Source of the DNA: Escherichia coli
GTDB lineage: Bacteria; Pseudomonadota; Gammaproteobacteria; Enterobacterales; Enterobacteriaceae
Assembly: GCF_048403405.1 (NCBI RefSeq)
Contig: NZ_CP183129.1
Length of the DNA stretch: 64,000 nucleotides
Reading direction: 5' to 3' (one strand)
Part shown: positions 59,402 to 60,116 of the stretch, piece after piece
Numbering within the stretch: the stretch's first letter is position 1
Layout of the letters: each line of letters starts with the position of its first letter
Program-made: the position numbers and the translations under genes
Notes under the pieces: model-generated
What the model was told of the DNA's origin: nothing
Seen by the model: only the letters and a program-made list of their open reading frames with translations
The model's database searches: none

Positions 59402-59612
59402 TCAATGAAGGATACATTAATTTTACGTTTATTATGATGAATCCTCTGCAAATGAGCGAAATTTGATAGAACATTTATCTGCTGTACGATTTAATGAACT
59501 TAATGATACAGCATTACAAAAACAATCGAAGTTTATAAAGATGATTTCTGATTGACCAGAACCCTACCCTACAATGGTGACTAATTTTATTACTCTCGAA
59601 GGAGATGATGAT

Positions 59613-60116
59613 ATGAATATATCATATGTGAATAGCAACAAAATGACATCTTTACCTGTTGAGCTAGATGCACTAAATAATAAAGATATCTCTTATTCCA
59701 AAGATTTTTCTTATGCCAAAGATCTCTTTTTATATATAGAAACACAGTTAAAAATTGCAAAAGATTTTTGTAGACCAGGAGAGGAAGTATCAAGATCTAT
59801 TGCAAATAAAGTTTTTCATGCATTTATTGATTTAGTTAACAAAATCAGAGGCAAGAAAGATTGTATGTATATTTGCACACTTTGCTGTTTTGCCGAGGAG
59901 GTTAAAGGTGATTATTCTCATTACAGAACCTTTTTATTTGATATTGGTAATCAATATAAGGTTAAACTTACACAAAGCGGAAAAAAAGAGTTCTCTTTAA
60001 CATTAGAATTTAACGATACTATAATTGAATCTCAGAAAGTCACAGGCAATAAGGCAAAGCATATTCTTGAGGATATAGAAATATTCTATCGTAACAAACC
60101 CGATACTTATTATTAA
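59613..60116 (+). CDS. hypothetical protein, 167 aa, AT-rich orphan ORF (no recognisable domain)
   Basis: ATG 59613 preceded by AAGGAG (59599-59604) and a TACAAT -10-like hexamer (59570-59575); ORF track reports a longer version from ATG 59574. Confidence 0.5.
   Translation: MNISYVNSNKMTSLPVELDALNNKDISYSKDFSYAKDLFLYIETQLKIAKDFCRPGEEVSRSIANKVFHAFIDLVNKIRGKKDCMYICTLCCFAEEVKGDYSHYRTFLFDIGNQYKVKLTQSGKKEFSLTLEFNDTIIESQKVTGNKAKHILEDIEIFYRNKPDTYY

Follow-up and report, generated by a model that had tools for sequence, protein, structure and literature searches.

The 167-codon open reading frame between aphA and tyrB of Escherichia coli as the undamaged form of yjbS

The aphA-tyrB spacer and its open reading frames

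The stretch of Escherichia coli DNA analysed here (64,000 nucleotides of NZ_CP183129.1, hereafter designated as the window) is in the opposite orientation to the K-12 map, with aphA at 58499-59212 and tyrB at 60338-61531, both on the minus strand. These two genes are separated by a spacer of 1125 bp, which an earlier note, made from the sequence of the window, had described as strongly AT-rich. This description was borne out by the overall composition of ca. 30% GC, with values of 0.29-0.35 over 59200-60300 vs 0.48-0.60 in the flanks. The left boundary of this low-GC islet was set by alignment with a strain having a spacer of 336 bp, in which homology to the window stops near 59345. The main features of the region are as follows.

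59213-59345, no strand: aphA-proximal segment of the spacer, outside the islet and common to strains without it
59346-60337, no strand: low-GC (about 30%) islet, filling most of the aphA-tyrB spacer
59552-59575, plus strand: candidate promoter (TTGACC, 12-nt spacer, TACAAT) with non-canonical spacing
59590-59793, minus strand: 67-codon antisense ORF, a chance ORF with a TTG start and no Shine-Dalgarno sequence
59599-59604, plus strand: Shine-Dalgarno sequence AAGGAG, 8 nt before the ATG
59613-60116, plus strand: 167-codon ORF, intact yjbS allele (ATG 59613, TAA 60114-60116)
59682-59727, plus strand: 18-nt tandem repeat in 2.6 copies, encoding KD(I/F)SY(A/S)
59770, plus strand: G that is deleted in K-12-type alleles, a frameshift that creates the 67-aa YjbS
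59981-59987, plus strand: A7 homopolymer at codons 123-125 (the final base of Gly123 included)
60305-60328, no strand: 10-bp GC-rich hairpin adjoining the tyrB stop codon (-20.1 kcal/mol, z = -4.5)

The 167-codon ORF and the AAGGAG motif upstream of it, both pointed out in the earlier note, were found as described; if read from an in-frame ATG further upstream, at 59574, the ORF would have 180 codons. In 22 alleles, no variation is seen in the GGAG core, in the ATG or in the TACAAT and TTGACC hexamers. The same note had credited the ORF with its own promoter, on the basis of a TACAAT hexamer about 40 nt upstream. The hexamer is there (59570-59575, 37 nt before the ATG), but the case for a promoter is weaker than the note had it, as a spacer of 12 nt instead of 16-18 nt separates the hexamer from the sole good -35-like motif (TTGACC, 59552-59557), and the pair is absent from the output of our promoter scan. 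The likelihood that ORFs of these lengths arise by chance was estimated by shuffling the 1125-bp spacer 2000 times with its dinucleotide content preserved. In these shuffles, the longest ATG-initiated ORF had a mean length of 54 codons and a maximum of 148, and a chance origin of the long ORF is excluded because none of the 2000 reached 167 codons. ORFs of at least 67 codons occurred in 381 of the 2000 (19%), so that the length of the antisense ORF is unremarkable.

The remainder of the spacer is heterogeneous. Mean pairwise difference between alleles is lowest in the aphA-proximal segment (0.014) and rises from 0.027 in the noncoding stretch 59346-59546 to 0.042 in the long ORF and 0.066 in the noncoding stretch 60117-60290. 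The conserved stretch 59346-59546 may contain regulatory sequence for aphA or yjbS; neither a conserved small ORF nor an Rfam match was found in it, and the Rfam search for non-coding RNAs returned nothing credible. The hairpin segment at 60305-60328 is conserved across alleles and is predicted to act, probably, as a two-way terminator for tyrB and yjbS. Two smaller ORFs were examined and rejected. The downstream 51-codon ORF at 60125-60280, a candidate partner gene, has a stop at codon 16 in K-12 and has lost its ATG in strain F070, and the upstream 54-codon minus-strand ORF at 59310-59474 is frameshifted between alleles. The long ORF is the sole conserved ORF in the islet, in which neither an adjacent cognate toxin gene nor a toxin C-terminal remnant was found.

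Identity with yjbS, allelic lesions and annotation

Because the 67-codon length of the antisense ORF matches that of K-12 YjbS, the earlier note had taken this ORF for yjbS and the longer plus-strand ORF for a competing candidate. The antisense ORF does overlap the 5' end of the long ORF; its identity as K-12 yjbS did not stand. In a K-12-type record, RefSeq places yjbS (WP_001321562.1, "protein YjbS", 67 aa) on the strand opposite to aphA and tyrB, which corresponds to the plus strand of the window, and its start is the ATG homologous to 59613. The same layout, between aphA and tyrB and on the strand opposite to both, was found in all E. coli loci fetched. Alignment and translation revealed that residues 1-46 of K-12 YjbS are the N-terminus of the long protein, from which they differ only by a small number of substitutions and one in-frame indel of 6 aa, and that its last 21 residues are out of frame. 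K-12 yjbS (b4621) shares position, strand, start codon and Shine-Dalgarno sequence with the window ORF and differs from it by the missing G at 59770, an A6 in place of the A7 run and an in-frame deletion of one 18-nt repeat unit, whereas the window copy has its full 167 codons. Given the common strand and homologous ATG, and since the 67-aa stump arises by loss of G 59770, the 167-codon ORF is identified from these alignments as the undamaged form of the already annotated yjbS, and is neither a new gene nor a rival to yjbS.

The shared length of 67 codons is a coincidence, and we give practically no credence to the view that the minus-strand ORF at 59590-59793 is a real gene. Besides the matching length, an open frame in 13 of 18 inspected sequences speaks for it. 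Yet it begins with TTG, has no Shine-Dalgarno sequence, evolves with a pN/pS of 1.01 and is broken in five fetched alleles (L003, L004 and L014-L016), three of which keep the plus-strand ORF intact.

The state of yjbS was surveyed in 30 rows taken at even steps down the ranking of 4379 records, of which 21 were fetched and translated and the remaining nine were classed by their RefSeq label.

14 rows (H1-H7, H9-H13, H15, H27): intact ORF, 167 or 161 aa
10 rows: K-12-type, 67 aa (one checked by sequence, nine classed by the RefSeq label "protein YjbS")
5 rows: otherwise truncated, 119-133 aa (H29 assumed to be O157-like)
1 row (H30): islet absent

The ORF is thus intact in 14 of the 29 sampled genomes that carry the islet. 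The two intact lengths reflect in-frame deletions of 18 nt, found in L002, L004, L011, L017 and L018. Damaging lesions comprise at least five independent frameshifts, together with IS1 events (one insertion in the gene and one IS1-associated deletion of the islet), in about 30 genomes. Four of the five distinct frameshift lesions fall within the A7 run or no more than 3 nt from it, which designates this run as an apparent mutational hot spot: it is an A6 in K-12 and L022 and an A8 in L016, a 10-nt deletion spans it in O157:H7, and a GT deletion at 59990, 3 nt after the run, is found in L017. The clustering may simply mark a stretch prone to mutation, may stem in part from sequencing artefacts, or may point to a switch operated by slippage. 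The tract is short and occurs as A6, A7 and A8 between strains. Some assemblies may be long-read only, and some of the single-base differences could be homopolymer errors; the K-12 and O157 lesions are genuine beyond doubt. Disruption in about half of the sampled carriers, together with the absence of the islet from ca. 20% of genomes, indicates that the gene is dispensable. In addition, two independently evolved macrophage-adapted clones were reported to carry the same IS1 insertion in yjbS (PMC4999529).

In RefSeq (PGAP), all 14 intact ORFs checked (L001, L003, L012-L015, L018-L021 and L023-L026) are labelled as pseudogenes, either "frameshifted" or "incomplete". Most labels are of the "frameshifted" type and span 223 nt, equal to the 204 nt of K-12 yjbS plus one 18-nt repeat unit plus the 1 nt missing from K-12; the others ("incomplete; missing C-terminus") span 363 nt, which matches as much of the 119-aa O157-type protein as is in frame. 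An 83-aa "hypothetical protein" (WP_000275035.1), starting at the internal Met85 of the same ORF, is added in several records. Intact copies are mislabelled because truncated proteins, the 67-aa K-12 form and the 119-aa O157-type form, serve as the reference. An intact ancestral gene is in this way called a pseudogene while the K-12 stump sets the name, so that counts made here for pan-genomes and pseudogenes are the wrong way round. The intact 167- and 161-aa proteins are listed as "uncharacterized protein" in nr, UniRef and AFDB. The main value of the present analysis lies in this correction of the annotation; the finding itself is an ordinary one, concerning a gene already known as yjbS and no new kind of system.

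Selection on the ORF, predicted protein and searches for relatives

Nei-Gojobori counts were pooled over 10 distinct intact alleles and gave the following values.

Whole ORF: pN/pS 0.41 (pN 0.041, pS 0.099); excess of synonymous segregating sites, binomial p = 0.0013
aphA, same genomes: pN/pS 0.08
tyrB, same genomes: pN/pS 0.09
Other five frames: pN/pS 0.51-1.41, the value of 0.51 belonging to the antisense frame with shared wobble positions
Codons 53-167, absent from K-12 YjbS: pN/pS 0.48, p = 0.013
Predicted helices, residues 33-93: pN/pS 0.15, p = 1e-4
Sheet and C-terminal helix, residues 94-162: pN/pS 0.76-0.86, p = 0.3

The in-frame ratio lies below that of the other five frames, three of which range from 0.90 to 1.41. 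Within the ORF, codon position 2 is more diverse than position 1. Replacements cluster in residues 94-162, and the contrast between helices and sheet is significant (Fisher p = 0.015). As estimated from these alleles, frame-specific purifying selection on yjbS is real but modest, being weak and regionally uneven, and the constraint appears concentrated in the N-terminal two-thirds of the protein, mainly in the helical segment. The suggestion of the earlier note that the long ORF is the real gene is upheld by its length, which no shuffle reached, by this frame-specific constraint and by the invariant GGAG core and ATG.

The product has a mass of 19.5 kDa and a calculated pI of 7.6. Neither its sequence nor its model shows an apparent signal peptide or membrane segment, and it is predicted to be a soluble cytoplasmic protein. 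AlphaFold2, run on 13 near-identical sequences, gave a model with pLDDT 70.3 and pTM 0.68, in which the following elements can be distinguished.

Residues 1-32: disordered, Ser/Asn-rich N-terminus
Residues 32-52, 61-77 and 81-93: helices
Residues 95-97, 106-111, 115-123, 126-133 and 136-144: strands of a four- to five-stranded sheet
Residues 145-160: C-terminal helix

While these secondary-structure elements are consistent, the tertiary packing is uncertain, since pLDDT ranges from 57.6 to 70.3 among the five models and superposition on the AFDB entry of a protein with 99% identity yields a TM of only 0.58. The several cysteines noticed earlier number five (C53, C84, C88, C91 and C92). A metal site is unlikely because they are not conserved across alleles, many of which have F instead of C84, with variation at C88 or C91 in some.

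By all searches run, yjbS is confined to E. coli. Searches of Pfam, NCBIfam, PHROGs, PADLOC and PDB sequences returned nothing usable, the best match being BamG with E = 0.031, far below the cutoff. All 63 matches among 5.8 billion clustered proteins (word index) were E. coli alleles or fragments, as was every credible phmmer match among 1.84 billion representatives. Two giant repetitive proteins considered as relatives were set aside, P0084 being low-complexity and P0080 matching over short repeated stretches only. No relative was found by the IMG/VR scan or by tblastn against phages. The description of the product as a low-GC orphan without a recognisable domain is consistent with these results. 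Regarding its fold, the PDB search gave no significant match, and no significant fold or sequence similarity to the immunity families CdiI, SUKH and Tsi was detected; CdiI, Tsi2, SMI1/KNR4 and EspG are among the weak structural matches. In AFDB50, the search retrieved the protein's own entries, as well as uncharacterised proteins of E. coli, Salmonella and Shigella with E = 1e-4 to 1e-5 and 10-17% identity, and a literature search on the accessions of these weak matches was empty.

Two collections held copies outside the expected context. Among 100,044 species-representative genomes, searched with two peptide patterns, the sole locus lay on a contig contaminated with K-12 DNA. This copy, attributed to "Flavobacterium paronense" CECT 8460 (L006), was rejected as error-ridden E. 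coli K-12 DNA: the 9.5-kb contig NZ_JAUFQN010000013.1 carries aphA, yjbS and tyrB with many single-base homopolymer errors and is almost certainly a laboratory contamination of a species-representative assembly. Matches in the plasmid collection PLSDB were mislabelled chromosomes or large chromosomal fragments. Several E. coli chromosomes of 4.8-4.9 Mb are labelled as plasmids in this collection, and a 17-kb "Klebsiella oxytoca plasmid" (NZ_CP069917.1) carries K-12-type yjbS DNA.

Distribution of the islet and interpretation

The islet was detected in 4357-4378 of 5426 complete E. coli genomes (ca. 80%). The aphA-tyrB site is hypervariable, with three states. In 19 genomes (e.g., L005), an unrelated spacer of 336 bp replaces the islet, and the remaining complete genomes, roughly 1000 in number, have no match to it. 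In the B2-type strain PMV-1 (L028, NC_022370.1), genes for 2-oxoglutarate dehydrogenase lie next to tyrB. They correspond to the KguS/KguR alpha-ketoglutarate island, which was located between tyrB and aphA (PMC3694859). This island (c5032-c5041 of uropathogenic E. coli) shares its site with the islet, but it is a multi-gene, metabolic element of known function and unrelated sequence, and hence an alternative occupant rather than a relative. A gene for an AAA-family ATPase and pnuC are found between tyrB and alr in L005, L010 and L028, and both are missing from the window and from K-12; this constitutes a second presence/absence polymorphism directly adjoining the locus.

A GC content far below average and a patchy distribution, two traits of xenogeneic islets, are both present here. 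Among the 78 "promoter islands" listed for K-12 is the tyrB/yjbS region, which was associated with predicted foreign genes, marked as bound by H-NS in two ChIP datasets and reported to be transcriptionally silent (Panyukov and Ozoline 2013, PMC3661553). Its low GC is shared by the window region, which shows no significant excess of promoter-like sites (6 vs 4.7 +/- 2.1 in shuffles), a density obtained with a simple sigma-70 consensus scan, whereas the promoter-island study used a different algorithm. In K-12, unusually few TraDIS insertions were recovered in yjbS (PMC5821084), a scarcity that may reflect protection of the DNA by H-NS, although this interpretation is ours and not that of the cited paper. 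With its low GC, species-restricted occurrence, weak selection, patchy distribution and frequent pseudogenisation, yjbS resembles the enterobacterial orphan genes found in low-GC acquired DNA; this class is descriptive rather than a family and predicts no specific activity.

Based on these observations, we favour, at a probability of about 75%, the view that yjbS is a protein-coding orphan gene confined to E. coli, undamaged in the window, carried on a low-GC islet of ca. 1 kb and encoding a product of 19.5 kDa that is predicted to be soluble. Translation would proceed from the strong, invariant Shine-Dalgarno sequence and ATG. Judging from its composition and from the K-12 ChIP literature, the islet would be foreign DNA kept largely silent by H-NS, and yjbS would therefore be expressed only when silencing is relieved. 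The gene may be conditionally useful or dispensable, which would explain both its weak constraint (pN/pS about 0.4) and its repeated loss. In the protein, the helical module may represent the functional core, and the C-terminal sheet a dispensable or variable interaction surface. As such, the locus illustrates clearly, on a small scale, how an orphan gene associated with H-NS is lost repeatedly at a hypervariable chromosomal site.

The most serious competitor of this reading, which we regard as possible though clearly the less probable of the two, is that yjbS is a relic everywhere: the gene would have been functional when acquired and would now be idle, intact copies being those not yet hit and the pN/pS below 1 a memory of past constraint. 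The repeated frameshifts and IS1 events, the pN/pS of ca. 0.8 over the C-terminal 40% of the protein, the lack of relatives and the reported silence of the K-12 region are all in keeping with this idea. However, the helices retain a pN/pS of 0.15 among alleles whose proteins diverge by up to 14%, at a synonymous divergence of about 0.10, the Shine-Dalgarno sequence and ATG have not varied, and the adjoining noncoding DNA at 60117-60290 is more variable than the ORF. An unlikely proposal is that the low-GC DNA matters rather than the protein. In this view the ORF would be incidental, and the islet, placed between the promoter of aphA and the terminator of tyrB, would nucleate H-NS binding or act as an insulator. 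The listing of the K-12 region as an H-NS-bound promoter island, the scarcity of TraDIS insertions and the upstream noncoding stretch, which is more conserved than the ORF, would fit such a role, but shuffles of this composition never give 167 codons, the constraint is frame-specific, and the islet is not needed by B2 strains or by 19 other genomes.

The uneven distribution of replacements can also be read in terms of conflict systems, with the product as an orphan partner, either immunity-like or a secreted substrate, and with its beta-sheet under diversifying selection as an interaction surface. The clustering of replacements in residues 94-162 next to conserved helices, the disordered Ser/Asn-rich N-terminus, the presence of CdiI, Tsi2, SMI1/KNR4 and EspG among the weak structural matches and the AFDB50 matches to uncharacterised enterobacterial proteins point in this direction. 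The islet shows no toxin gene or remnant and the product no significant similarity to immunity families; we consider such a role improbable. Similarly doubtful is a composite of these ideas, in which a functional protein of non-B2 E. coli, with a fold different from all solved structures, active helices and a fast-evolving sheet, would be switched on and off or truncated at the A7 run. Kept silenced, it would serve in conflict or in interaction with the host, for instance as an orphan protein of the immunity type or as cargo of the degenerate ETT2 secretion system, and would be distantly related to the enterobacterial proteins retrieved by Foldseek.

The window contains a second low-GC ORF (45551-46843, plus strand; 430 aa, GC 0.33), which sits where K-12 gene order places yjcF and which we take to be that gene. 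Its product, YjcF, was considered as a paralogue of YjbS and rejected, being a pentapeptide-repeat protein that has no similarity to YjbS. The yjcF/actP region also appears in the table of H-NS-bound promoter islands (PMC3661553).
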